64,000 nucleotides of DNA from a virus (Duplodnaviria > Heunggongvirae > Uroviricota > Caudoviricetes), in the IMG/VR virus record IMGVR_UViG_2585427754_000004; one strand, 5' to 3'. Below are positions 1,829 through 36,287 of this stretch, one piece after another. The translations under genes were made by a program, and so were the position numbers. A model generated the notes under the pieces. The model made no database searches. It had not been told where the DNA came from and saw only the letters and a list, made by a program, of their open reading frames with translations. The first letter of the stretch is position 1. Every line of letters begins with the position of its first letter.

Positions 1829-2521
1829 ATGAAAACTCCGAGAGGCATTCGTAATAACAACCCTGGCAACCTCGACAAAGGTTCGCCGTGGCAGGGGCTA
1901 ATCGACAACCCTGCCGAACCGCGCTTTTGCACGTTTAAAGACCCTGTTTGGGGGATTCGTGCGCTGGCGGTGACTCTAATTACCTACCACGATAAACGTC
2001 GCGCAAAAGACGGCACAAGTATCGATACCATTCGTGAAGTTATTGAACGCTGGGCACCGCCGAATGAAAACAATACTGACGCCTACATTAATGAGGTGTC
2101 TAAAGCCGTTGGTGTAACCGCAGACATGATCATCGATCTGCATGATTACGACATCCTTCGACCTTTGGTTGAGGCAATCATTCGCCACGAGAATGGCCGA
2201 GGCCCGCTAAAAACGCTGAACACCTGGTATGCGGCAGAAGTTATTGAGGAAGGTCTGCGTCGAGCTGGCGTTGTTAAGCCGGTGAAAACCGTGAAGGCTG
2301 TTCCTGTAACTAAAGAAACCGCAGGCGCAACTGTTACAGCAGGTATTGGTCTGGCGCAGCTGGCCGATGTTATGCCGCAGGTTTCCGCTGCTATGGATAA
2401 AGCACAAGGTCATATCTCTAGCGGGGATACAGTACGCATCATCTTCGGTATTGCCACTATTGTTGTGGCAGGATTCATTGCCTGGTCGCAGGTAAGAAAA
2501 CACCAGAAAGGGATGGTCTAA
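1829..2521 (+). CDS. Conserved phage protein with N-terminal RGIRNNNPGN motif and C-terminal membrane anchor; lysis-associated candidate
   Basis: ATG at 1829 preceded by AGGAG. C-terminal hydrophobic helix IIFGIATIVVAGFIAWSQV. Sits between the holin candidate and the spanins. Enzymatic class not established. Confidence 0.3.
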   Translation: MKTPRGIRNNNPGNLDKGSPWQGLIDNPAEPRFCTFKDPVWGIRALAVTLITYHDKRRAKDGTSIDTIREVIERWAPPNENNTDAYINEVSKAVGVTADMIIDLHDYDILRPLVEAIIRHENGRGPLKTLNTWYAAEVIEEGLRRAGVVKPVKTVKAVPVTKETAGATVTAGIGLAQLADVMPQVSAAMDKAQGHISSGDTVRIIFGIATIVVAGFIAWSQVRKHQKGMV

Positions 2522-2522
2522 T

Positions 2523-2774
2523 ATGCTAGGCAGCCTGATGACAAAGCTAAAAGTTGCTTTGATTACGCTGGCTGCCGTTCTTTTCGTTCTTGTCGGCGCT
2601 TACACGATGGGCGGGAATGCGGCGCGACGAGCAATGGAAGAGAAGGCAAAACAGGAAGACAGAAAACGACTTCAAAACACAGTGAAAGTGGTGAATGAGA
2701 CGAGCAGTAAAATACGTCAGAAAGATGCTTCTGCCGTTCATCGTGAGTTGTATGATAAGTGGGTGCGTCATTAA
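2523..2774 (+). CDS. Inner-membrane spanin (Rz-like)
   Basis: N-terminal transmembrane segment followed by a charged coiled-coil region; overlaps the next gene in the classic Rz/Rz1 arrangement. Confidence 0.5.
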   Translation: MLGSLMTKLKVALITLAAVLFVLVGAYTMGGNAARRAMEEKAKQEDRKRLQNTVKVVNETSSKIRQKDASAVHRELYDKWVRH

Positions 2775-2910
2775 ACCACAAACAGCCAGCGTGTTGTTCT
2801 GCGATGGGGCTGAGCCTATCTATATCAGCAATAATGATGTAATGACTGAAGAAACCGAACGCCAAATCCTTTTTCACAATACGATGGGAGAGAGGGTTTG
2901 TGGTTGGTGA
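2695..2910 (+). CDS. Outer-membrane lipoprotein spanin (Rz1-like), start embedded in the Rz-like gene
   Basis: Signal peptide with lipobox (MISGC), short mature region with Cys residues, +1-frame overlap with 2523..2774. Confidence 0.5.
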   Translation: MRRAVKYVRKMLLPFIVSCMISGCVIKPQTASVLFCDGAEPIYISNNDVMTEETERQILFHNTMGERVCGW

Positions 2911-2942
2911 TGTCGAAGTTCCCCTCAAATGAGGGGAACACA

Positions 2943-3464
2943 TTATTCGTCGAACAATTTTTCGATAGATTTTGTAGGATAGAACAAAGAACGCTCGTTG
3001 TTACCAACCAGCTGGATAAAGCCTAAACTTTTATAAAACGCCTTGGCTTTGTCATTTAACGCCTCAACGAAAAGTCCATGAATGCCTACAGCAAGAGATG
3101 CATTGTACACAACGCGCATTGCATGTGTTACAAGCATTGAGCCAAATCCTTGACCTTGAAGGGACTTGTCCAAAGCCAGCCTACCCAAAGTAACACTTGG
3201 AACATTCCGATAAGGAACCTTCTTTTGTTTGCTTCTTGAAGGTAAGGACTCCTTTTCAAAACAACTACCTGACAAAGTGTAATATCCTAACACTTTTGGC
3301 CTTTCTTCTTGAGTGCAAAGCACATAAGCACGAAGAATTTTTCCCTCATGCTGCCTTTTTAAGTGGTTGGCTAAAAAGGCGTTTAGTGACTCTTCGCCGC
3401 AATCAAAACCGTTTAGATCATAATCTTTCTCTCCAGAGAAAATCTCTATCGTTGTATTGCTCAC
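2943..3464 (-). CDS. GNAT-family acetyltransferase toxin (TacT/KacT-like) of a type II toxin-antitoxin pair
   Basis: 173 aa with acetyl-CoA-binding signature QGQGFGSMLV; 7 bp downstream of a DUF1778-type antitoxin gene on the same strand. Confidence 0.75.
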   Translation of the reverse strand: MSNTTIEIFSGEKDYDLNGFDCGEESLNAFLANHLKRQHEGKILRAYVLCTQEERPKVLGYYTLSGSCFEKESLPSRSKQKKVPYRNVPSVTLGRLALDKSLQGQGFGSMLVTHAMRVVYNASLAVGIHGLFVEALNDKAKAFYKSLGFIQLVGNNERSLFYPTKSIEKLFDE

Positions 3465-3471
3465 GAGTAAA

Positions 3472-3741
3472 CTACTCCATGCTTTTCAGACGATCAGCAG
3501 CTCGTTTCAGCTTGTCGTTCGGTGCCGGAGGATTGCTTATAGCGTCCATAACCAGATTCCAGGATTCTTCATTCAGAACTAGTCTACGGTGTTGCTCTAT
3601 AACTTTCACGGCACGTTCAGATGCACTGCTAACCATAAACTGAGTAATGCTCTGGTTAGACATTGCGGCAGCTTCCTCGATGATGCTTTTATCGTCATCG
3701 GTTAATCTCAAATCGATGCGCTGCTTTTTTAGTGCTGACAT
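3472..3741 (-). CDS. DUF1778 ribbon-helix-helix antitoxin (TacA/KacA-like)
   Basis: Translation MSALKKQRIDLRLTDDDKSIIEEAA ... NPPAPNDKL is typical of DUF1778 antitoxins. ATG at 3741 (minus strand) preceded by AGGAGG; ORF track extends to 3780. Confidence 0.7.
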   Translation of the reverse strand: MSALKKQRIDLRLTDDDKSIIEEAAAMSNQSITQFMVSSASERAVKVIEQHRRLVLNEESWNLVMDAISNPPAPNDKLKRAADRLKSME

Positions 3742-5139: not shown

Positions 5140-5907
5140 TTATGCCGCGCTAACACTATGTTCAGTCCTAACCACCCCAACCTTCACAAAAGGGCTACCG
5201 TAGCTTGGTGGTTTCTTGATTAATTTGCCTACATACAGTTTTCTAATATGCTCATCGGCTATTCTGCCAACAAATTCATAACGTTTTGTGTCGGGGCCAA
5301 GAGCTATATCCCTTGTAAAGTACTGCTGAGAACCGGCTTTGACCCAGCATTCAATCCGATAAACTTCCATTATCAGCCCACCATATGTAGCGTAGGCATA
5401 TTTGAGATTCTCGTCTCTTGGAACCTTTGCCCATACGCCACGCGTAGCTTCATATAATGCCAGAGCGGACATTCCTGACTTGTAGGTGCTGTTTAGCAGG
5501 AAGGCAAGACCGGCGTGCTCAGGAGCAATTTCAGTTTCCTCTTGCAGCACTAAGTGATGGTAGGCGTCCAGTGATATTCTGCCCATCATGGAACCACTTC
5601 CTCGTACCTTATTCGTAAGCTCTCCGACCCCCATAAGGTCGATGCATGTCGCCTCAACAAGTTTGGCTGTGGTTTCATCCATACCATGACGAAGTATATC
5701 TATGCCTAATTTTTTATTAGCCAAAAGTTCTTTGATCCGCATGGATTTGGGAGAGTCATCGGGATACTTGATGTGATCGAGACAACGAGTCGATTTGCCT
5801 TTTCCTATGTAAAACGGTCTTTTCATCTTGTCTTCTGTATCATAGAGACAGTAAACATAGTATTTAGCCTTATCCAATGATCTCGCGTATACCGATAAAT
5901 CGTCCAT
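5140..5907 (-). CDS. GIY-YIG domain protein (homing-endonuclease-like or other nuclease)
   Basis: N-terminus YYVYCLYD ... PFYIGKGK ... R ... H matches the GIY-YIG fold. Opposite orientation to its neighbours. Confidence 0.45.
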   Translation of the reverse strand: MDDLSVYARSLDKAKYYVYCLYDTEDKMKRPFYIGKGKSTRCLDHIKYPDDSPKSMRIKELLANKKLGIDILRHGMDETTAKLVEATCIDLMGVGELTNKVRGSGSMMGRISLDAYHHLVLQEETEIAPEHAGLAFLLNSTYKSGMSALALYEATRGVWAKVPRDENLKYAYATYGGLIMEVYRIECWVKAGSQQYFTRDIALGPDTKRYEFVGRIADEHIRKLYVGKLIKKPPSYGSPFVKVGVVRTEHSVSAA

Positions 5908-6017
5908 TATTGCATCTCTTAGCTACTGACTAATGCGTTCTATTTTACACATAAGTTTTTAATCAATTTAACAGGCTCAAAGTGTAGAGCTTCTGGGCGT
6001 CTAAGACGACAAGTTAT

Positions 6018-6075
6018 GCCTGCTTCTGTATATATATAAATAATAAGTAACTTATTAAATATATACGGAAGCAGG
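6018..6075. repeat. AT-rich palindromic element of about 58 bp, copy 1
   Basis: GCCTGCTTCTGTATATAT ... ATATACGGAAGCAGG with AATAAGTAACTTATT at the centre; a near-identical element occurs at 51287..51345. Confidence 0.6.
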
Positions 6076-6182
6076 TCTTTTAAAAGACACCACCAGAACA
6101 AGTCCCTTCCGTTTCCACTTCCAAAAACTGCCACCAGTCGCTATCATCCGCTCATTGTGATAAGTAAGTAACTACCTACCAG

Positions 6183-6932
6183 GTGAGCCACATGAGCCAA
6201 ATCTTTTTCGATACCATCGACAACGACCAGTACGACTTCATGACAGAGTGGAATACCGCTGTTATGGACAAGTGGGTCGCTGAAAACATTGGTTTGTCGC
6301 GCTGTAAAGATGAGGCTGAACTCTTCGAGACGAAGTGGTTTGATTACCGCGACATGCATCCTCTGATGGCCACCTGTCTATTTACGGAGGCATACAAACG
6401 TCAGTACTCAAATATCATGCTGACGCACGGTCGCGAACACTTTGAAACAGCTCCGTTCACCACCGGGTTAAAACGCCTGCCTTATCAGGAGTTGTCGACT
6501 GCCAATAAAACGTCGCTATGGAAAGCACGCCAGTTTGCGGATCGCTATTGCTGCTCATACGACTACTTTATCTCCACCGTTCTTTCCGCAGCTGCACGAC
6601 GGCTGTGGGACAAGCTGCCGCGTCCGCAGCATTTGTGGCAGCCAGAACTGATTGAGATATTTGAAGATAAATTAGCCAGACGCGCAACAACCCGTCTGGA
6701 TGACTCTCTGGTTAGCTTTAAGCATATGGGAGACATGCAGTTCAACCCGATTCAGGAAAGCTATTTTGAGTGGATTCTGGAGCGTTTGCGCACCATCCCC
6801 CGCAGCAAGCGCATACGCGCAATTTTCTCCGCTATCTGGCTAATGGAAATCGTTCCAGAGCGCCTTATTTCCGCCCACTTTCCAGAAGAACTGGAAGAAG
6901 CACGGCGGTTTATTGATCCCCTATCTAATTAA
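6183..6932 (+). CDS. Hypothetical protein (immediately upstream of the helicase)
   Basis: 249-aa ORF with upstream TAAGTA palindrome motif; no recognisable motif. Confidence 0.35.
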   Translation: MSHMSQIFFDTIDNDQYDFMTEWNTAVMDKWVAENIGLSRCKDEAELFETKWFDYRDMHPLMATCLFTEAYKRQYSNIMLTHGREHFETAPFTTGLKRLPYQELSTANKTSLWKARQFADRYCCSYDYFISTVLSAAARRLWDKLPRPQHLWQPELIEIFEDKLARRATTRLDDSLVSFKHMGDMQFNPIQESYFEWILERLRTIPRSKRIRAIFSAIWLMEIVPERLISAHFPEELEEARRFIDPLSN

Positions 6933-6975
6933 CTAATACTAGAAAACAATTTGTTTAAAAAACAAAGGAAAGCAC

Positions 6976-8316
6976 ATGACCGAACTTTGCCATACAGGAC
7001 GCGGGCTGTCCGAAGAGTTTGATGAAGATTTTCAGAACAGATTGACGGCCTATTTTTGTCGTGATCACGAGTTTCTTACTCGTGCTGGAGATCTGGTTGT
7101 ACCTAGCCAATTTGCCAATGCGGCCAATGCCATATTGGTTAATATGGTTTCGGGCTATTACCGTATGTACAAGAGCGCGCCCTCTTCATCTGCGATTCTG
7201 GATATGCTTAAGCGTGCGAAACGCGATAAGACTATCCGTGAGGAACTATTCGCCGATGTTGTTGCTGCGTTTAAGCGCATCCTTGCAGAAAAATTGTCTG
7301 ATACCTCGTACATGGTTGACCAGGTATCAACCTTCGCAAAAAGTGTAGCGTTTGATGATGCTCTGATTAAGGCTGCTGAACTGAAAGAGAAAGGCGACTT
7401 TCAGGGGGCGATGGCAATCATGGCCAAGGTTCAGCAGATTGGATCGAACGAAGCGACCGGAATCTATGACTACTACACCTCCGCAAGTGAGCGATTGAAG
7501 GCGCGTGAATATGAGGCTTCAGAGGAGTATGTGCCAAACAGCATTACAACTGGACTCCCTCTGCTCGATAGGTTGCTGTACCAAAAAGGCTGGGCGAAGC
7601 GTGAAATGGTGCTCTTCATGGGGTTCGCTAAATCCGGTAAATCGACCGCAATGGGTGAGTTTTCCATAAACGCAACACTTGCTGGCTACAATGTTCTGTA
7701 TCTCTCGCTGGAGGTTCACACCACCATTTTATCCGACCGTTTTGATGCAAGATTGTCGGAGACAGAAATGTCCAAGCTGGTGGAACGGCGCGATGAGGTT
7801 CATCGTAAGTTGGCAGAGTTGGGAGCCACGAAGGGGATTGGTAGTTTGTGGGTGGTTGAGCGTCCGTCAGGAAGTATGTCACCGGCAGATCTGGACCGTA
7901 TGCTTAACAGCATGAAAGCCAACGGCATGGTACCTGACATGGTTGTTGTCGACTACGCAGATTTGATGCGTGCCAGTTATGACCTTCGTGATGATCGCGC
8001 CAACATTCGTAGTATCTACACCGATTTACGTGCTCTTTATGACAAGCATAACGTTGCTGGGATCACGGCATCGCAGACAAACCGTGAAGGTGGCGCGTCA
8101 GAAGTTGCCACAATGATGCACGCTGCCGACAACATCGAAAAAGTACGTATTGCTGACCTGGTAATAACGATCAACAAAACCGAAGAAGAAGAAGCGAAAG
8201 GAGAGGCTCGTCTCTACTTTGCTGGTTCACGTAACCAGCAGGGAGGGATCAGCATTCGCGTTAAACAAAACCTCGAACAAATGCGCTTCATTGAGCGAAT
8301 CTTAGACGTTACCTAA
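6976..8316 (+). CDS. DnaB-family replicative DNA helicase
   Basis: Walker A GFAKSGKST, Walker B VVVDYADLM, RecA-like C-terminal domain; conserved upstream AAACAAnTTGTTT motif and shared translation-initiation sequence. Confidence 0.7.
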   Translation: MTELCHTGRGLSEEFDEDFQNRLTAYFCRDHEFLTRAGDLVVPSQFANAANAILVNMVSGYYRMYKSAPSSSAILDMLKRAKRDKTIREELFADVVAAFKRILAEKLSDTSYMVDQVSTFAKSVAFDDALIKAAELKEKGDFQGAMAIMAKVQQIGSNEATGIYDYYTSASERLKAREYEASEEYVPNSITTGLPLLDRLLYQKGWAKREMVLFMGFAKSGKSTAMGEFSINATLAGYNVLYLSLEVHTTILSDRFDARLSETEMSKLVERRDEVHRKLAELGATKGIGSLWVVERPSGSMSPADLDRMLNSMKANGMVPDMVVVDYADLMRASYDLRDDRANIRSIYTDLRALYDKHNVAGITASQTNREGGASEVATMMHAADNIEKVRIADLVITINKTEEEEAKGEARLYFAGSRNQQGGISIRVKQNLEQMRFIERILDVT

Positions 8317-10969: not shown

Positions 10970-12288
10970 AAAAGTTGATCGCACTTAAGCATAAGCTGGA
11001 CGAAATGAAAGCTATGGGAACCAATGCAAAAAAAGAGGCATTGGCCAACATGGATGACTTCGAGCAAAGCATGGTTTCATTGATGCTCAACCCTTTCATC
11101 CGTTTTGGGGTAAAGAAATACAAAGTGGCAGAGCCGCTTAGTGAGTCCGTCCCAAGTGACGAAAAAGCCATTGATATACTGAATAAGCTGGCCTCTCGCG
11201 AGCTGACGGGGAACGCAGCAATAGCTGCTGTTGAGTCTATCGTGGCGTCAATGTGCGCCGATGGGCAGGACGTGTTCCGTCGTTTCCTCTTAAAAGATCC
11301 GAAAGCTGGCGTTGGGATTAGCCTATGCAACAAGGTTTTTGAAAATCCCATTCCGAAATTTGAGGTGCAGCTGGCGTCACCGTATAAAGAAAAAGGCGAC
11401 AAATACCCCTTCAAGCCAAATCCTAAAGCCAAATGGCCGATGATTGGCAGCCTTAAGCTCGATGGTTTGCGAGTAATTTGTGAGGTTATTGTTGACGAGG
11501 AAGAGGTGAACTTCCTTTCTCGTACTGGTAATCCAATCACGTCTCTCGATCACCTAAAGCCAGCCATGCTCGAATTAGGCAAACTTTCAGGCCACAAACA
11601 CATCTTCTTCGATGGTGAAGGAACAGCCGGTTCATTTAACCAGTCCGTATCTGCATTGCGCAAAAAGAACGTGCAGGCAATTGGCGCTATTTATCATGTT
11701 TTCGACTTCTTCCTACCGGAATGGCGGGCACAGGCTAAATCCAAAGAGTATGCAAAGACAGGTATGAAGCTGAAAGAGCGCCTGGCTATGCTCGTGGCGT
11801 TGTTCAAAAACGATCGCAGTGAAGGCTACGCACAAGACATTCACCTGCATCCGTTCTATATCATCCATAGCCACGAAGACTTCATCGAACGCTTCATGAA
11901 ACGCCTGGACGATAACGAAGAAGGGGAGATGGGCAAAGATCCGAACTCTGTTTACGAGTTTAAACGTACCCGCAGCTGGTGGAAGTTAAAAGACGAAGAT
12001 TCAGAAGATGGTGAAATTATCGATTTTGAGCCGGGCGATCCGGACTCTGGTTTTGCCAACACGCTTGGAAAAATTGTTATTCGCCTTGAAAACGGTGTGA
12101 TTGTTCGTGCGAGCGGCATTAAGCATAAATATCTGGACGAGATCTGGAACAACAAAGAGAAGTACCGTGGTCGTATTGTCGAGGTTCATTGTCACGAGAA
12201 AACGCAGGATGGCAGCTTACGCCACCCACGACTGAAATGGCCGCGTTGCTTACGCGATACAGAAGATCGAATCGGAGATAAAGAATGA
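10966..12288 (+). CDS. ATP-dependent DNA ligase
   Basis: Adenylation motif I KLDGLR (KxDGxR) and C-terminal lysine-rich motif; 440 aa. Confidence 0.7.
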   Translation: MKKLIALKHKLDEMKAMGTNAKKEALANMDDFEQSMVSLMLNPFIRFGVKKYKVAEPLSESVPSDEKAIDILNKLASRELTGNAAIAAVESIVASMCADGQDVFRRFLLKDPKAGVGISLCNKVFENPIPKFEVQLASPYKEKGDKYPFKPNPKAKWPMIGSLKLDGLRVICEVIVDEEEVNFLSRTGNPITSLDHLKPAMLELGKLSGHKHIFFDGEGTAGSFNQSVSALRKKNVQAIGAIYHVFDFFLPEWRAQAKSKEYAKTGMKLKERLAMLVALFKNDRSEGYAQDIHLHPFYIIHSHEDFIERFMKRLDDNEEGEMGKDPNSVYEFKRTRSWWKLKDEDSEDGEIIDFEPGDPDSGFANTLGKIVIRLENGVIVRASGIKHKYLDEIWNNKEKYRGRIVEVHCHEKTQDGSLRHPRLKWPRCLRDTEDRIGDKE

Positions 12289-12446
12289 TGCTCGGCTGGA
12301 TGATTGCATTTTTAGCAGTTGGTTTTTCATCGGTATTGTGGTGATGTCCAGTTGCATTAATGACTACATTAAAAACGGTGTTATAGAAAGACGAGGTCGC
12401 ATTTATCGCATTGTAGAAATAACCAACACCGTGAAGGAGATTAAGG

Positions 12447-12662
12447 ATGATCGTATTAAGTAAACGGGAGAAGGAAACGCTTCATGAAATCAGTAAGTGG
12501 CCGGAGTTCCCTGAGTACTGGAAGCCTAAAACGCGAGCTAAGTTAGAGCGGTTAGGGTTGGTTGCAAACGTTTCTGAAACGAAGTGTTCGGCCAACTACC
12601 AGTTAACTGATAAAGGGAAAGTATTGCTACAGCAATTAGTAGAATCAGGAGTGTTAAAATGA
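12447..12662 (+). CDS. Hypothetical small protein
   Basis: 71-aa ORF preceded by AAGGAG. Confidence 0.25.
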   Translation: MIVLSKREKETLHEISKWPEFPEYWKPKTRAKLERLGLVANVSETKCSANYQLTDKGKVLLQQLVESGVLK

Positions 12663-19804: not shown

Positions 19805-21040
19805 ATGACTACTACTGCACTGCAAAATGAAAAAAATCCTTCTGATTACCTTGTTTGCAAGTGGTGCGGAAAATCATTTCACTATTTTAAGTCCCATGTA
19901 GCCAATGGTAATTGCGAGGGCATTCCTGAGTCAGTAAAAGATGCCGATCCTGACACCGTACTGAAAATGTACACAACACAGTTTCCAGATGAGCCAACGC
20001 TATCGAAAAAGGCACTTGATGCAATTCAAGCTAAACGTGCCGAGCAAAAAAGCGAAATGGCCAAATCATCTGGCGTGACCAGTAGCCCAGGCTACACAGG
20101 CACAGTTGAGTACAAGACAGATCTGGTCGCAGCTCACGAACTGCTAAATGTAACGGTGAAAGAACTCGGAACAAAACGTGGGACGCCGCTCATGGTTAGC
20201 GTCAACGTCAATACGCCGTATCCAGAGTTCGTTCCAGAAGTGAAGAAGGGCTACGTATATGGCGACTTCGAACTGATCAAAGATATTTTCATGATGCTTG
20301 AACTTGGCATACCTGGCTATTTGTGGGGTCATGCAGGAACAGGCAAATCGTCATTGCCTACACAGCTATGTGCTTTGCTCAATCGTCCGTTGATCCGTGC
20401 CCAACATACAGCATCAATGGAAGAGGCACATGTTACGGGGCAAATTCTGGCGCGTGATGGCTCTACGTATTTCGAGCCTGGCTTGCTTGCGCTCGCAATG
20501 AAGCATGGCTGGGTTTACCTCGCGGATGAATACGACTTTGCGTTTCCACAAATTCTTGGCGTGTATCAGCCAGTGCTGGAAGGTGAGGCGTTGGTCATCA
20601 AAGAGGCAACTCCAGAATGGCGTCGCATTACTCCGCATGAACGGTTTGCTTTCATTGGCACTGGCAACACAAACGGTTCTGGTGATGAAACCGGCTTGTA
20701 CCAGGGTACAAACATCCAGAACGCCGCGAACTTTTCGCGTTTTGGCATCGTTTCGAATGTGAAATACATGAGCAAAGAGGCAGAGATCAACATGTTGATA
20801 AATGCCGGTATCGTGGATGAATACGCAGAAAAGATGGTTAAGTTTGCCGGTATCGTTCGCGATGGATACGAAGAACACCTTATCAGTCAGCCAATTGGCC
20901 CTCGTGAACTTTTGTTGTCGGCCAAGATTGGAATGATGCGAGGCGACTTTGTGACAGGTATTGAGCGTTCTTTCATTAACAAACTCCCTTCAGCTTCTGC
21001 ACAAGCGGCTCGTGAAGTTGTTCAAAAAATATTTGGTTAA
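19805..21040 (+). CDS. AAA+ ATPase (MoxR/CobS-like)
   Basis: Walker A GHAGTGKSS, Walker B VYLADEYD; N-terminal Cys/His cluster; directly follows the vWA gene. Confidence 0.6.
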   Translation: MTTTALQNEKNPSDYLVCKWCGKSFHYFKSHVANGNCEGIPESVKDADPDTVLKMYTTQFPDEPTLSKKALDAIQAKRAEQKSEMAKSSGVTSSPGYTGTVEYKTDLVAAHELLNVTVKELGTKRGTPLMVSVNVNTPYPEFVPEVKKGYVYGDFELIKDIFMMLELGIPGYLWGHAGTGKSSLPTQLCALLNRPLIRAQHTASMEEAHVTGQILARDGSTYFEPGLLALAMKHGWVYLADEYDFAFPQILGVYQPVLEGEALVIKEATPEWRRITPHERFAFIGTGNTNGSGDETGLYQGTNIQNAANFSRFGIVSNVKYMSKEAEINMLINAGIVDEYAEKMVKFAGIVRDGYEEHLISQPIGPRELLLSAKIGMMRGDFVTGIERSFINKLPSASAQAAREVVQKIFG

Positions 21041-21220
21041 TCGTGCGTAAAGGATGTTTCGGCTCTCTTATCGCTGCTTCTGAAACTGGTAAGGCTTGTC
21101 TGGTGTGTCCAGACAAGCCCGATTGTCACCAATCAGCAAAAGAAGTTGCGATTTCGATGCATGGGAAGTTCGTAGGCTTCCCCAATGACAAAATCAAAAA
21201 AACCAGAAAGGTAAAAACAC

Positions 21221-24200
21221 ATGAAGGCACTGATGGTTCGAACTGACTTCTCACTTGGGGAGTCGGCTCTAAAAGCAGAAAACGCGGTGAAGATTGCCAG
21301 AGAAGCTGGCTACACCGCTGTAATTTCAGCAGATAGCATGAATATTGCGAGCGTTATTCCACTACAACGTGCCGCTGGTGACGACATGGCGGTTATTTGT
21401 GGTGTGAAACTAAACATTGTTGATGATCCCACATACGAACACCGGGCTAAACTTGCTAAAGAATCTATGAGATGTATGGAATCATTAGAGCGGGGACGTA
21501 ACTACTCGTTTACCGCTCTAATTAAAAATGAGCAAGGATATCGCGACATCTGCGAACTAATGACGGCGGCCAACACACGAGAACAGTTCTACTTTGTACC
21601 GCGTCTCTCGCTCGAACAGTTGGTTTCTACATATGCCAAAGGCAACATCATCCTGCTTACTTCCGACATCGGTAGCGTGTTCCAACGCAACGATTTTGCA
21701 AAAATCATAAGCACACTGATTACAGCGGGTGGAAAAGACAACTTCTATAGTGTGGTTTATCCGCACCCTACCCCATTCTACGACCAGATTAACGTCCGGG
21801 CGATGAAAGTCGCCAGCGCATTGAAAATAGAGCCAGTGGCGTTCTATCCCGCTTATTACGAATCGATCGACGATGCAGACATTAAAGACATCGCGCACAT
21901 GGTTACGAACAACATCAAAATCGACCAGCCGCATCGTCTGCGTATCCCCCACCAGCGAGATAACGCCGTCAATGGTCGCCGCCATCTCCTTGAGGCGCTT
22001 AAAGCCTTCTCCGTTCGCATGGATGTGCCTGTAACAGCTGCAATGGCCTCAACAACGCAGGATACCATTATCGATTCCTGCACATGGCGCTGGCATGAAT
22101 TGCCACCAGCACTGCCAAAGATGGCAGACGACGAGCCTGCAACGCTTATGAAACTGGCTGTTGCAGGGCTGCGTAAACGTCTTACCACAAAAGAGTTTGG
22201 CTACACACCACCTGCTTCTGAGAACAGGGTTTATGTTGAGCGGCTAAAGTACGAAATGGACACGCTGACTCGCCTGGGATTTTGTGGTTACTTCCTGATG
22301 GTACGCGATCTGATGAATCATAGTCGTGAAACTGGCATTCCCGTTGGGCCTGGTCGTGGTTCCTCTGCCGGTTCTCTGGTGGCGTGGTGCATAGGCATAA
22401 CCAACGTCGACCCAATCCGTCACGGTCTTCTGTTTGAGCGTTTCATCAACCCTGAGCGTCTCGACTTGCCGGATGCGGACTTGGACTTCAGCCAGGCACG
22501 TCGCCATGAGGTGATCGAGTATCTGAATGAACGCTACGGCGAAGATTACGTTGCGGGTATTCCGAACTTCACCTACCTGGGCGCAGCCTCTGCACTACGT
22601 GATACCGCTCGTATTTATGGTGTGGAGTCCGCAGATATGGCGGTATCAAAAGAACTGAAGAACGCTGAGGATGATAGCCTTCCATTGGAAGAACTGCGCG
22701 AACAACTGGCAAGTCTCGACAAATACGCAACAAAATATCCTGATGCATTCAATGCAGCCTGCAAGTTACAAAGCCTTATGCGTGGCTTTGGTAGACATGC
22801 GGCAGGGATGATCGTAGCAGGTGTTCCTCTGACAGAACGTACACCGGTTGAGCGCCGTGGTGACGCGCGTTGTATCGCATTTGACAAGCGTTACTGCGAG
22901 GCTATGGGCCTAATTAAGCTGGACGTGCTTGGCCTGGCAACTCTCGATTTGCTCGATAGTGCAAAACGCTACATAAAAGAGAACACAGGTGAAGATATCA
23001 ATCTTGATGCCATTTCTCTTGAAGATCGCAAGGTGCTGGATGGTTTTGCTGCTGGGTACACTCAAGGTGTTTTCCAGCTTGAATCAGGCCCAATGCGCAA
23101 GCTGCTTAAAGATTTAGGTGGTGGAATTGAGCCAATGAGCTTTAAAACGGTCGTCGCTACAACTGCGCTCTTCCGGCCGGGGCCAATTCAATCAGGCATG
23201 TTGGATGACTATGTTTCTGTCGCCAAAGGCTTTATGACGCCGGAATCATTACACCCCGTTCTTGATGAACTTACCGCGGAAACAAATGGCGTGATTCTCT
23301 ATCAGGAACAGACGATGAACGCGACTCGATTGCTTGCCGGCTTCACAATGGCTGAAGCTGACGCTGTGCGTTCCGCAATCGGTAAGAAGAACATGGAAAA
23401 AATGAAGAGCATGGGCGAGAAGTTCATCGTTCAGGCTCAAGCTGGCTGGATAGACGTTGAGCTGGAAGATGGCACTACACAGCGCATTCACCGTGCGGAA
23501 CATTTTAAATGCGAAGACGGAACTCTGAAAACTGTCGAAGAGGCACTTGAGCACGGCGCAAAACTACCTATAAACGCAGTACGCGTTACAGCGTCACATC
23601 CAGGGCTATCAGAGATGAAAGCGAAGGAGATCTGGACCGCATTTGAGAAAAACGGAGCCTATCAGTTCAATAAATCACACTCCGTTGCTTATTCTTTAAT
23701 CAGTTATCAGTCTATGTGGCTAAAGACGCACTACCCTGCTGAGTTCTTCGCAGCTGCGCTCACCATTCTGGGCGAGGATAAGCATCAGGGGCTGGTGAAG
23801 GATGCGCTGACCTATGGCATTCGCGTATTGCCACCAGACGTTAATGTGTCATCTAACCGAATTGAGATCCGCACACTCGAAGACGGCAGTCAGGCACTGT
23901 ATGCGCCATTCTCTGCTGTGAAAGGCTGTTCTGAAAATGGTTGTCAGGCAATTATGCGTGCGCGTGAGAAAGTTGGTGGCAAATTCGAGTCAGTGGCACA
24001 ATTCGATGAAGCGGTCGAGAAGCGTGCATGTAACAGTCGTGTACGCGAGTCGCTTCATAAAGTAGGGGCTTTTGCGTCAATTGAGCCAGGCAGTCTGCCA
24101 GCAACTGATCCTGAACGACTGCGCGACCAGGCTGAGCTGATGGGCAATCTCATCATTGACGCTGTTAAAGCATCACGTCCGTTCGAAATGAATCCTAAGC

Positions 24201-32806: not shown

Positions 32807-33142
32807 ATGAAGGCCATCCCATTCGCGCTGTTGTTCCTTTCTTCGATCGTTGTGGCCGACACCACTGTTTATCAGTGTGAAATGTCTGTAGCCGACGTTA
32901 AGAATGGCGCTCTTACCGACGTCATAAAAGCACCATATGGAGCGATGGTCGTAGACAGCGGCGACCAGTTCTATGTTGTGCGTGACGATCGAGTGTTGTC
33001 ATCCCCATATCTCACAAATCGTAATGGCAAATTAACCGGCGTCGGAGAAGACCACTTCGTATACAACAAATACAAGGGCTTCTATGGCGTTCACGCTTCT
33101 CAGCAAAGCTACCTTTTCGATGACTGCAAGGAGGTTGGATAA
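32807..33142 (+). CDS. Secreted/periplasmic hypothetical protein
   Basis: N-terminal signal peptide MKAIPFALLFLSSIVVA. Confidence 0.35.
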   Translation: MKAIPFALLFLSSIVVADTTVYQCEMSVADVKNGALTDVIKAPYGAMVVDSGDQFYVVRDDRVLSSPYLTNRNGKLTGVGEDHFVYNKYKGFYGVHASQQSYLFDDCKEVG

Positions 33143-33354
33143 TGGCATTAACACTGGCAGGTCTGGAAATCGAGAAAACAAGCGGCTACTGGCGTGCTAA
33201 GGGTTTCAAGCAGCCTGGCATTCTTGAGCGTCTGGAACGTGAAGATGGGTATATCGTCCACCAGCGGCGTGAATGGCGTATGTACGATCCAGAAACAGGA
33301 AAACTGACTACAAAAGCCGGAACACTTTGGGGTCTGTTGAAGAAAATTCACTGA
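33142..33354 (+). CDS. Hypothetical small protein
   Basis: 70-aa ORF, start overlaps previous stop. Confidence 0.25.
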   Translation: MALTLAGLEIEKTSGYWRAKGFKQPGILERLEREDGYIVHQRREWRMYDPETGKLTTKAGTLWGLLKKIH

Positions 33355-33360
33355 TAACAC

Positions 33361-33843
33361 CAACCACTGCGGTGAGTAGTCTGCTCACCGCATTCGTATC
33401 CAGCTCATTATCCACTGTAGTCAGTAACAAAACCTTCCTACATATCTGCTAACCACTGTAGCGAGTAGACAGCCTTTCATTCGCATCAAACAACCACTAT
33501 GGTGAGTATTGGAGTGAGATGTCCAGCGGGTATCCACTATGGTGAGTAAGCCTTTGCTGTTTTCAGTGGATATCCACTCGCCACAGTGGATACGCTCAAA
33601 GATGAGGGCGACAACAACCACTATAGACAGTAAATTTTCCAAGATACCCAGTGACCACTAACCTCGCAGCCCTTGTTTCATCAGTGTTAGTGATCACTAA
33701 CATTTAATTCAGTATTTGCATTCTACTGCCTACAGTGGTTATCAACAGATAACGATACTCACTATAGTGGATAGCGAATTACAGATATAAGTAAGGCTCA
33801 CTACAGTGGATAGTGAGCCTTACTACTAACTACAGTGGTTGGG
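33361..33843. repeat. Iteron array downstream of repA (about 10 copies, both orientations; incA-like copy-control candidate)
   Basis: Repeated AACCACTRTGGTGAGTA / CTAYAGTGGWT units, e.g. at 33363, 33446, 33492, 33530, 33614, 33757, 33795, 33828. Confidence 0.6.
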
Positions 33844-34899
33844 CTATTTGCGAGTCTTTGCCTTGCGCAACTCTTCGAGAAGCGCCAGTTCTTCTTTACT
33901 CAACATGACCATTTTGCCTTCTTTTTCGTCAGGCACAACGTCGATAATGTCATCTTGATTCTCATCTGGGAGGCTATATTCCGTCTCATCATTATCGATT
34001 TTTGTTGATATTTGTGCCTGGCGTAACTTTGGCCGCCTATAGTGGATGACGAAGTAGACCGAGTTTCCGCGCTTAACTTCCGTGTAATCGAGATATCCTA
34101 TCTCTCGCAGCTGTTCCATAGCCTTTCTTACCGTCGCATTCTGAGTAATAGTGCGACTTGTCAGATTAAGTCTGGCGCGTAAACGGGCTAGTGATATTGG
34201 TGCCGGATCAGGCGGCAAACTTTCAATAAAAGTATAAAGCGCCTGAGCGGATTCTTTTCTTGAGAGTTCGTTTATAGCCCGGAGTTGCAGAAGAACCTTT
34301 TTGTCGAACTGGTAGAGTTCGAAAATCTTGGGATCTGCTTTCAGTTCGACCGTATCGTGCTTGACACTATATTTTGCCGTTTGCACAAGATGCGTTACGT
34401 AAAACTCATCAGAGCCTTTGCTACGGAACGAGATGGTATTTGTGGCAATACGGCTTAGCGAACTGTCCAGGCGTTTGCGTAACTTCGCTGATGACCTGGC
34501 GGTCGGAATGCCACACAGCCTTACAAACTCAACGAACGGCAACGTGACAGTATCGCCAACGACCTTGTGTTTGGCAAACGCGTGGATTATTCCCACCCAC
34601 GTTTTAAAGTCGTTATCCATATCAAGCCGAAGGCCAGAGATCCTTATGTCTTCGTACCCTTCGGCTTTTGCCAGAGACAGCTGTTTGAGTTCAGCAGAGG
34701 CATCCATAGAGACCATTTGCCCCTTTCTTCCTCTGGATGTCGATTTCAGCGTCGGAACGAAGAGGCCCAGACGCATCAAAGCAACAGGCTGAACAGTGTT
34801 ATTAGTGTTAGGAACCAACGTAACAACTTCGCCTGTCTTTTTATCTGTTTCTGAAAATGCTTCAACGATCGCTATGTTTTTATTGCCGTTTTCGCTCAT
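33844..34899 (-). CDS. repA: Iteron-type plasmid replication initiator (RepA-like)
   Basis: 351 aa with winged-helix-like C-terminal region; flanked on both sides by iterons of the same sequence family; DnaA box and GATC cluster upstream. Confidence 0.55.
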
Positions 34900-34987
34900 T
34901 CCAAATGTCTCTTGTTATTCGACGGCTTTGGTGGCCTTTGCTGATTACAGTGGATAGTAGCACTCATCACAGCGGTTATCCTACCGT

Positions 34988-35059
34988 CTATAGTGGTTTT
35001 TCTCCTCTCTATAGTGGTTGCTTTGCTCCCTATAGTGGATTATTCGCTCTCTATAGTGG
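34988..35059. repeat. Four direct iterons (CTATAGTGG core) at exact 21-bp spacing upstream of repA
   Basis: Core starts at 34988, 35009, 35030, 35051. Confidence 0.7.
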
Positions 35060-35173
35060 ATATCGATCATGTCTGAAGGCAGATGGCACAACGGTTTGAG
35101 GTTGGCGGGGATCTTATTGGGTCTTTATGGGTCTCTTTGGTTCTCTTTGTGATCTGAATTACTGGATCGGGCC

Positions 35174-35182
35174 TGTGGATAA
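35174..35182 (-). promoter_or_regulatory. DnaA box (TTATCCACA on minus strand)
   Basis: TGTGGATAA on the plus strand is a perfect 9-mer consensus; two 8/9 matches nearby (35221..35229, 35548..35556). Confidence 0.5.
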
Positions 35183-35345
35183 AAATCAGAGGATTTCAAG
35201 AACAGGTAACTCTACTCTTCTGTGGATATTTAAGGACATAAGAATCATGACTAAGAGTAGAGTTTAAAATATATCTATTTATATCAGTATGTTAATGAAG
35301 AATTAAGTCATTAAGTTATCCATAAAAGACAATGTGCTCTACTCT

Positions 35346-35440
35346 CTACAGTGGATATATACAGCTCTCCAGAGTGGTTGTTTTACTCTTCATAGCGGTT
35401 ATTCAGCTCTCTACAGAGGTTTCTTTGCTCTCCATAGTGG
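35346..35440. repeat. Second array of five iterons at about 21-bp spacing
   Basis: CTACAGTGG, CAGAGTGG, CATAGCGG, CTACAGAGG, CATAGTGG cores at about 35346, 35369, 35390, 35411, 35432. Confidence 0.6.
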
Positions 35441-35483
35441 ATGGCAACACCCTTTCAGACCAGTAACCGCAACGGCTAGAGGC

Positions 35484-35541
35484 GATCGGGGATCTCTTTG
35501 GATCTTCTATTTGATCTTACTTGGGATCTCTTATTTGGATC
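35484..35541. promoter_or_regulatory. Cluster of six GATC sites in 58 bp (candidate Dam/SeqA-regulated origin region)
   Basis: GATC at 35484, 35491, 35501, 35513, 35525, 35538; a smaller cluster at 35065..35168. Confidence 0.5.
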
Positions 35542-35642
35542 TATCCAGTGGATAACTGGGATAAGTAAAACAGGCAAATGCAGATTAAGGTATGCCTAAT
35601 GAGTTATCGTAGCATCGGCCAATAACTACTGAAAAAACGATT

Positions 35643-36287
35643 ATGGATCTAAAACGCACGCGCTGGGTTCGTCGTCTTGATGACGGCTCCTACACTATCG
35701 AATCAAATTCCAACCTGAATAAGCAGAAGTTACTTTGTGATATCTGCGGTATAGCGGCGAAGTGCCCGATCTACGAAACCAGAATTAAACTTGATAAGGC
35801 TGGTGTGAACTTTCATTTGAATAGTTGTATCAGGTACGTTCCATTGCTCGCATTTCGTAAACCGATCATCGGATTGGATGCGCCCTACTTCAACACACTC
35901 CGTTCAGGAGTAACGTGGCGAGATCGTTTATCACCAGACAAACTGATTTGCCTTGTATCCGCAGATACAGGAAAAATCATTCGTTTTGGGAAAGTAGACA
36001 AGGTTTACTCAGGCCCAGTTGACGAGATGTTGCGGAAACACAGCCGGTTTAATCACCTCTGCATGGGTGGTGAGAAAATCGAGAAGGTTGAAGAAGTGAT
36101 CCGCAAATCCTACGGACACTTCCTGACCAAAGATAGCCTGCTCACTGCAATCTACATCAGACATGTAAAACGTGAGTTCGACCTTGAATACCATAGCGAA
36201 GAAGAACTGAACCTTGTCGATCCACGTCCTAAAGCTGGCGTCATAAGCATAAATGCAGCGCGTAAAAAGCCCACTGACGCGCTGTAA
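35643..36287 (+). CDS. Hypothetical protein adjacent to the origin
   Basis: 214-aa ORF preceded by a GATC-rich region. Confidence 0.3.
   Translation: MDLKRTRWVRRLDDGSYTIESNSNLNKQKLLCDICGIAAKCPIYETRIKLDKAGVNFHLNSCIRYVPLLAFRKPIIGLDAPYFNTLRSGVTWRDRLSPDKLICLVSADTGKIIRFGKVDKVYSGPVDEMLRKHSRFNHLCMGGEKIEKVEEVIRKSYGHFLTKDSLLTAIYIRHVKREFDLEYHSEEELNLVDPRPKAGVISINAARKKPTDAL

Follow-up and report, generated by a model that had tools for sequence, protein, structure and literature searches.

A P1/RepFIB-family iteron replicon with a tandemly duplicated origin core in an SSU5-family phage-plasmid

Organisation of the replicon region

The stretch of DNA analysed here (the window) comprises 64,000 nucleotides of the IMG/VR virus record IMGVR_UViG_2585427754_000004 (Caudoviricetes), and slightly past its middle it holds a replication initiator gene, repA, surrounded by copies of a 21-nt repeat (iterons; plus-strand consensus TCTACTCTCTAYAGTGGWTAT), DnaA boxes and groups of GATC sites. 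Read in the direction of the gene, the outer half of the upstream region consists of tandem DnaA boxes, six GATC sites, a GC-rich spacer, five direct iterons and a 155-bp AT-rich spacer, and the inner half consists of a perfect DnaA box, a degenerate block with four GATC sites and six direct iterons, followed by repA and twelve downstream iterons. The origin core, made of a DnaA box, a GATC block with units similar to the 13-mers of oriC, and iterons, is therefore present twice in tandem, as a module proximal and a module distal to repA. The features are as follows.

33360–33842, both orientations: downstream control array (incA-like), 12 iterons, matrix scores 19.9–27.9
33844–34899, minus strand: repA, encoding a 351-aa Rep3-family initiator with two winged-helix domains (Pfam)
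34029–34049, plus strand: iteron-like site inside repA, codons about 283–290, matrix score 18.7
34937–35063, plus strand: proximal origin/operator array, 6 direct iterons starting at 34937, 34959, 34980, 35001, 35022 and 35043
35064–35173, no strand: proximal spacer and degenerate 13-mer block, with GATC at 35065, 35110, 35151 and 35165
35174–35182, minus strand: perfect DnaA box TTATCCACA, the only perfect one in the window, on the outer side of the proximal module
35183–35337, no strand: AT-rich spacer between the modules, 155 bp, GC content down to 20%
35338–35444, plus strand: distal origin array, 5 direct iterons starting at 35338, 35361, 35382, 35403 and 35424
35445–35483, no strand: GC-rich spacer separating the GATC block from the distal iterons and containing the right boundary of a swapped cassette (about 35454)
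35484–35541, no strand: distal GATC block of T-rich units resembling oriC 13-mers, with GATC at 35484, 35491, 35501, 35513, 35525 and 35538
35547–35564, minus strand: tandem DnaA boxes of the distal module, TTATCCACT (35547–35555, one mismatch) and the degenerate TTATCCCAG (35556–35564)

A position-weight scan of the whole 64 kb located 24 iterons with the core CTAYAGTGG, all of them between 33360 and 35444: six and five units in the two direct arrays upstream of repA, one inside the gene and twelve downstream. With the 21-nt matrix these sites scored 17.0–29.8 and the best site elsewhere in the 64 kb scored 13.0, a separation that is partly circular since the matrix had been trained on 22 of the 24 sites; those at 33360 and 33553 were found beyond the training set. 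The exact 9-mer core CTATAGTGG occurs seven times in the 64 kb, every time inside 33618–35059, and with up to one mismatch allowed there are 17 matches in 33300–35600 (one of which, at 33759, is a palindromic shadow of that at 33762) versus 9 in the other 61.7 kb.

Every unit of the proximal and distal arrays has the same orientation. Successive starts are 22, 21, 21, 21 and 21 bp apart in the proximal array, the edge of which lies 38 bp upstream of the repA ATG, and 23, 21, 21 and 21 bp apart in the distal one. The downstream array begins 2 bp past the repA stop codon and is composed of six units in the origin orientation (starts 33553, 33573, 33722, 33754, 33793 and 33822) and six inverted units (starts 33360, 33408, 33449, 33490, 33530 and 33614), five of the latter forming an outer sub-array with 40–48 bp spacing and the one at 33614 standing apart by 84 bp. 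From repA outward, four units in the origin orientation are followed by a mixed stretch and then by five inverted units, with intervals of 29, 39 and 32 bp, a gap of 108 bp, and then 41, 20, 23, 40, 41, 41 and 48 bp.

The six GATC sites of the distal block, packed into 58 bp, form the densest GATC cluster of the window. When the 278 GATC sites of the window were placed at random, a cluster of six was reached in 2 of 2000 trials (p about 0.001). The units of the block resemble the 13-mer of oriC, the consensus of which is GATCTnTTnTTTT, and the sole match to this sequence in the window with at most one mismatch lies at 35525. By analogy with P1, the distal block is presumed to be the unwinding element and the target of Dam and SeqA. 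In the proximal block, three units read GGTCT or GTTCT in place of GATCT.

A preliminary description of this locus had placed it at 33361–35561, which is right to within a few bases, and had reported about 20 repeat copies with a strict 21-bp periodicity; the repeats are real, but the number was a slight undercount, and the period of 21 bp is interrupted by one interval of 22 bp and one of 23 bp. The mixed-orientation array that it saw downstream of repA is borne out, with six units in each orientation, as are the six GATC sites within 58 bp. The perfect DnaA box that it placed near these sites also exists, but it lies 302 bp from the cluster and belongs to the other, proximal module. Similarly, the two direct arrays described upstream of the gene are both present, but each of them is in fact part of a tandemly duplicated origin core.

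Identity of the element and its initiator

The 2.35-kb region shares 99.8% identity with Escherichia phage Cyrano, which is the phage-plasmid pLF82 of E. coli LF82, and the window coordinates map one-to-one on Cyrano from 26790 onward. With 55 plasmid records the identity is 99% or more, and its DNA is about 83% identical to that of Salmonella phage SSU5 and of pMT1 of Yersinia pestis. Of the records, two were checked, pMT1 and an E. coli plasmid of 99.9% identity, and both are typed as IncFIB. The database records of this replicon that were inspected annotate only repA.

RepA matches the Pfam families Rep3_N with 42.2 bits (cut-off 22.4) and Rep3_C with 22.6 bits (cut-off 21.1), corresponding to the two winged-helix domains WH1 and WH2. 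The protein is identical (100%) to that of Cyrano, 91% identical to those of SSU5 and pMT1, and 61–65% identical to the RepA proteins of E. coli IncFIB plasmids; a tblastn comparison with P1 RepA gave 47.5% identity over residues 40–293 (E 1e-71). A scan of RepA and both neighbouring open reading frames against NCBIfam yielded no match, nor did a sequence search of RepA against the chains of the PDB.

Duplication of the origin core

The two cores are paralogous, with 70% identity over 117 nt (z score 9.2) in the window and 79% in pMT1. A survey covered 119 related loci, drawn from viral contigs and species-representative genomes, of which 112 had a full upstream flank. Two iteron arrays are present upstream of the gene in 74 of the 112 loci, and 72 of these 74 have a cluster of at least five GATC sites directly outside the distal array; at least four GATC sites are kept in both modules at 24 of the 112 loci. 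These loci are distributed over Kluyvera, Buttiauxella, Yersinia, Rahnella, Erwinia, Pantoea, Franconibacter, Cedecea and Xenorhabdus, and their RepA identities go down to about 62–67%; this spread over genera and RepA identities indicates that the duplication is old and has been maintained. Replicons with the tandem core are carried by phage-plasmids and large plasmids of Escherichia, Salmonella, Yersinia, Rahnella, Erwinia, Pantoea and Xenorhabdus. A single module is found in P1, in the classical RepFIB (pO157), in PhiR41_1 and in pJN2-26, so that the window departs from the characterised members of the family in this trait. Comparison of the distal and proximal blocks of the window with those of Pantoea gave overlapping z scores (14.7, 12.9, 7.7 and 5.2).

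A sister group within the survey (loci L065–L090, from Pantoea and related large plasmids) has RepA proteins 65–68% identical to that of the window and other iterons, with no match to the matrix. Its members have a single upstream module with 6–10 GATC sites and, 27 nt ahead of repA, a TCATCCACA box that is conserved, and several Pantoea genomes carry a replicon of this type alongside one of the two-module type.

Exchange of the iteron–repA cassette

The comparison with PhiR41_1 delimits a unit that has been exchanged between phage-plasmids which are otherwise nearly identical. Up to 33352, where a Cra-like gene ends, PhiR41_1 and the window share 99% identity, and from position 35454 on they share 91.8%; in the interval, the RepA of PhiR41_1 is only 49% identical, and unrelated palindromic iterons (TATGCTGTCAGCGGTA) are present on both sides of the gene. 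The swapped unit therefore consists of iterons, repA and iterons (33353–35453), with the crossover on the origin side located between the iterons and the GATC block, and the half of the origin that carries the DnaA boxes and GATC sites remains with the backbone. In pJN2-26, RepA has been swapped too, and the repeat sequence is altered on both sides of it with the flanks the same. The only origin core of PhiR41_1 is the orthologous DnaA/GATC block (91.8% identity), to which the unrelated iterons are attached. Since the sole origin core of PhiR41_1 is orthologous to the distal block, the distal block is very likely functional in the window as well. On a more speculative reading, this swap would also show the host-factor half of such origins to be interchangeable between initiator specificities.

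Sequence constraint in the upstream region

Constraint was assessed by aligning the 760-bp upstream region with those of six relatives whose RepA proteins are 87–91% identical. Positions of the iteron core are 73–91% invariant versus 18–55% for the variable positions of the unit, and in the distal block 75% of the GATC columns are invariant versus 41% for the bases between them. Identity of the orthologues to the window is 85% in the proximal DnaA/GATC block and 76% in the distal block. The distal iteron array has 85% identity and 71% invariant columns, and conservation is weak in the AT-rich spacer (59% identity, with 29% of the columns invariant). The GGTCT and GTTCT units of the proximal block occur in the group of SSU5, pMT1 and Cyrano and are themselves conserved in most of the aligned relatives.

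The proximal array is shorter by exactly one 21-bp unit in two of the relatives (five units instead of six), and the downstream array has 12 iterons in the window, 15 in SSU5 and 14 in pMT1. It follows from these whole-unit differences in the proximal and downstream arrays that the arrays evolve by gain and loss of whole units. Such polymorphism of iteron number, seen among SSU5, pMT1 and the surveyed loci L112 and L116, might track copy-number set-points between lineages.

Further features and genomic context

The iteron-like site inside repA (34029–34049) is also present in SSU5 and pMT1 and at 48 of the 119 related loci, and is missing from the Pantoea branch. It lies near the place where P1 RepA ends and encodes the peptide VIHYRRP; it may be a true RepA site or may be kept by the encoded peptide alone. 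Two mechanically predicted open reading frames on the plus strand, 34857–35099 (80 aa) and 35334–35555 (73 aa), were rejected as genes, their 7-residue periodic ‘YSG’ peptides mirroring the 21-bp repeat. A comparable open reading frame in the downstream iteron array of PhiR41_1 (locus L008, 2810–2926) is annotated as a hypothetical protein. In the AT-rich spacer, positions 35210–35229 form a degenerate iteron that is 2 bp short and is at the same time a DnaA-like box (CTCTACTCTTCTGTGGATAT); the left half of this site and positions 35253–35262 constitute a perfect 10-bp inverted repeat (CTCTACTCTT / AAGAGTAGAG), and in this 35210–35262 feature the relatives keep only the TATCCNCAGA part.

The genes surrounding the replicon encode a helicase, a primase, the alpha subunit of DNA polymerase III, SSB, a RecA-like protein and SbcCD; according to the Cyrano annotation, the helicase, primase and polymerase genes occupy positions 5323–7926 and 19968–23474 of the window. 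The presence of phage replication and recombination genes around it points to the module being the plasmid-state replicon of a phage with separate lytic machinery. A ParA gene lies at 2518–3186, about 31 kb from repA, and the next gene is annotated as a RelE/ParE toxin (both within 2518–3545 in the Cyrano annotation). The same annotation places a cluster of three tRNA genes (Asn, Thr and Ser) at 12232–12479.

Proposed mechanism and division of labour

We conclude with high confidence that the region serves an SSU5-family phage-plasmid for replication in the prophage state and belongs to the P1/RepFIB family of iteron-controlled theta replicons, with the general mechanism of P1 and FIB. The anatomy and homology described above come from the window and its relatives, and the mechanism is taken over from experiments with P1 and FIB. 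RepA monomers would bind the direct iterons on one face of the DNA, at a spacing of two helical turns (21 bp), the host DnaA would bind the boxes at the outer edge, and the two proteins would jointly open the T-rich GATC block of 13-mer-like units between them. Full Dam methylation of this block would be needed for firing, and after initiation the hemimethylated GATC sites would be sequestered by SeqA. In P1, both the requirement for Dam methylation and the sequestration by SeqA are established. The host genera of the replicon all belong to Enterobacterales, except for one metagenome-assembled genome of Tolumonas, and the Enterobacterales groups have Dam and SeqA.

RepA bound to the array next to repA would repress the gene, and the 12 downstream iterons, together with the origins of sister copies, would be paired by RepA with iterons of the origin (handcuffing), which would keep the copy number low. 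With FIB, the downstream block of iterons was by itself enough to displace a resident replicon, unlike the upstream block, a result that the authors of that study read as handcuffing (PMC11983097). A search of 33000–36000 for known RNA families at a permissive E-value found none, and thus gave no sign of copy control by antisense RNA. In overnight cultures the Cyrano plasmid is kept at a low number, about 5.5 copies for each chromosome (PMC9928086). This number is compatible with control by iterons.

As to the two cores, we propose that the distal one, with its six intact GATC sites and P1-like tandem boxes, would be a working origin, and that the proximal one, which abuts repA and has a perfect DnaA box and three lost GATC sites, would serve mainly as the repA operator and may be an auxiliary or second initiation site. 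The distal core is favoured as a working origin because it has kept six GATC sites, matches the P1 oriR more closely and has a block orthologous to the sole core of PhiR41_1. This division of labour is put forward tentatively, since we judge it to fall slightly short of an even chance. That the doubled P1-type core represents an uncharacterised functional design, with copies diverged in role, is a more doubtful proposal; if it is true, one core would be an origin fully sensitive to Dam and SeqA and the other, deprived of three GATC sites, would be an operator, a second origin or a handcuffing partner in cis, and the duplicated core would add a layer of control not present in P1 or RepFIB.

The strongest competitor, which we nevertheless consider rather unlikely, is that the proximal module is the sole working origin and the distal one a redundant sink for RepA and DnaA, a handcuffing partner or an accessory to the promoter of the neighbouring gene for an ASCH-domain protein. 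Relatives with a single module have their origin directly upstream of repA, the proximal block is the more conserved of the two across orthologues, and the window’s only perfect DnaA box is found there. However, the proximal block has lost three GATC units and this loss is fixed, whereas the distal block has all six, with conservation specific to their columns, and is both the orthologue of the only core of PhiR41_1 and nearer to the P1 oriR (z 14.5 versus 8.6). Furthermore, a useless duplicate would be unlikely to last in 74 of 112 replicons with RepA identities down to about 62–67%.

Less probable still is that both modules are independent origins, used alternately or depending on conditions, for example with one sensitive to Dam and SeqA and the other less so. 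Each module is complete in having a DnaA box, T-rich 13-mer-like repeats and at least five phased iterons, and both are conserved in the clade, including the 24 loci with at least four GATC sites in each; but this is purely structural inference, an operator role of the proximal module suffices to explain it, and we know of no P1/RepFIB-family replicon with two tandem origins. Finally, it is extremely improbable that the repeats are a partition centromere or an operator array for a phage transcription factor that lies near repA by chance: the regular 40–41 bp period of the outer downstream sub-array is centromere-like and the element does have the distant ParA gene, but no partition or repressor gene adjoins the repeats, the same 21-nt unit builds origin-type arrays beside DnaA boxes and GATC blocks, the layout equals that of the annotated RepA-binding iterons of P1, and, which led us to rule out a centromere or an operator unrelated to RepA, the repeat sequence changes along with RepA in PhiR41_1 and pJN2-26 while the flanks stay constant.

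Several points weigh against the P1-like mechanism with a distal origin and a proximal operator. Autonomous replication, binding of RepA to the iterons, dependence on Dam and SeqA, and handcuffing are all predicted properties carried over by homology. The proximal block is better conserved than the distal one (85% versus 76%), which fits the proximal module being the real origin. The best consensus promoter in a promoter scan runs from 35295 to 35268, is directed toward repA and matches at 10 of 12 positions, but it is situated in the AT-rich spacer with its poor conservation; a weaker one, from 35066 to 35039, lies within the outer proximal iterons; neither was recovered in pMT1 or Pantoea by the consensus scan, and the repA promoter was therefore not located. 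As the phage has its own helicase, primase and polymerase III alpha subunit, its lytic replication probably uses a different origin. The copy number of P1 is 1–2, and that of Cyrano is higher.

Significance

Phage-plasmids of the SSU5 family are common among clinical Enterobacterales; they include pHCM2 of S. Typhi, pMT1 of Y. pestis and pLF82/Cyrano, as well as elements that carry CTX-M resistance genes. A base-level map of their iterons, DnaA boxes, GATC blocks and control array defines the minimal replicon and predicts which elements should exclude one another by incompatibility. The segment 33360–33842 should serve as a curing or incompatibility tool, as has been demonstrated with FIB (PMC11983097). 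The doubled core and the sharp boundary of the cassette add a little to what is known of the evolution and regulation of P1-type origins, and the practical value is modest but real.

Comparison with known replicons

The reading of this region as a P1-type replicon with an oriR/incA layout, already offered in the preliminary description, is supported by homology, namely by the 47.5% identity of the RepA proteins, by the 79% identity to the P1 oriR block and by the same order of parts. In the P1 record, tandem DnaA boxes are followed by five Dam sites, by five iterons, by repA and by the nine iterons of incA, which is the order also seen here. The distal block with its DnaA boxes and GATC sites is 79% identical to the P1 oriR over 117 nt (z 14.5), and the proximal block compares with z 8.6. 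The abutting boxes, TTATCCCAG-TTATCCACT here and TTATCCACA-TTATCCACT in P1, align base for base, and the GATC sites are spaced 13, 12, 12, 10 and 7 bp here, 14, 12, 12, 10 and 7 bp in PhiR41_1, and 23, 11, 10 and 7 bp in P1. The incC iterons of P1, which overlap the repA promoter, are spaced 21, 21, 21 and 22 bp, compared with 21–23 bp here, and its incA runs from the repA stop codon first in the origin orientation and then inverted, with a spacing of 31 or 41 bp, like the downstream array of the window. In contrast, the P1 iteron core (GATGTGTGCTGGAGGGAAA) is unrelated to that found here (ATATCCACTATAGAGAGTAGA in the direction of repA), RepA has about 39 additional N-terminal and about 58 additional C-terminal residues relative to the P1 protein, there are 12 downstream iterons instead of 9 and two origin cores instead of one, and the par genes are not adjacent here.

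Although the likeness to P1 is one of homology, the closest characterised relative is not P1 but RepFIB, the replicon of IncF plasmids such as P307, F and pO157, with RepA 61–65% identical and related iterons. The pO157-type RepFIB has one perfect DnaA box, five GATC sites at 11–13 bp, five 21-bp repeats (B, C, D, D' and D'') and repA, and its downstream E–J array, which is the control element of RepFIB, follows the same pattern as here, origin orientation first and then inverted. The RepFIB iteron is also 21 bp long and is related (TACTGACTACAGCTTATAT in RepFIB, TACTCTCTACAGTGGATAT here), but its core has CTTA where the window has GTGG. The classical RepFIB has one origin module and a leader of about 150 bp before repA, whereas two modules are present here. 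Scored with the matrix of the window, the pO157 iterons reach 12.5–14.5 versus at least 17 for the window’s own sites, and typing software still says IncFIB. Since the iteron cores differ at the presumed specificity positions (GTGG versus CTTA), the incompatibility specificity predicted from sequence is probably distinct from that of the classical RepFIB.

SSU5, pHCM2 and pMT1 carry the same replicon, with a two-module upstream layout, intragenic site and downstream organisation identical to those of the window. Their boxes differ in detail: the proximal DnaA box, perfect here (TTATCCACA), has one mismatch in SSU5 and pMT1 (TTATACACA), and the distal one reads TTATCCACT here and TTATTCACA in those two elements. 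The origin of pMT1 was reportedly described by Lindler et al. in 1998 as similar to the RepFIB, RepHI1B, P1 and P7 replicons.

The ori2/incB-repE-incC region of mini-F is likewise built of a Rep3 initiator, DnaA boxes, an AT-rich region, autoregulating origin iterons and a handcuffing downstream array (PMC11983097). Its logic is that proposed here, but its initiator is more distant, its iterons are 19 bp long and of another sequence, and it has a single origin module. To our knowledge, mini-F has no GATC 13-mer block of the P1 type. The replicon described here is an ordinary member of the known P1/RepFIB family, and neither its presence nor its predicted control logic will surprise a specialist.

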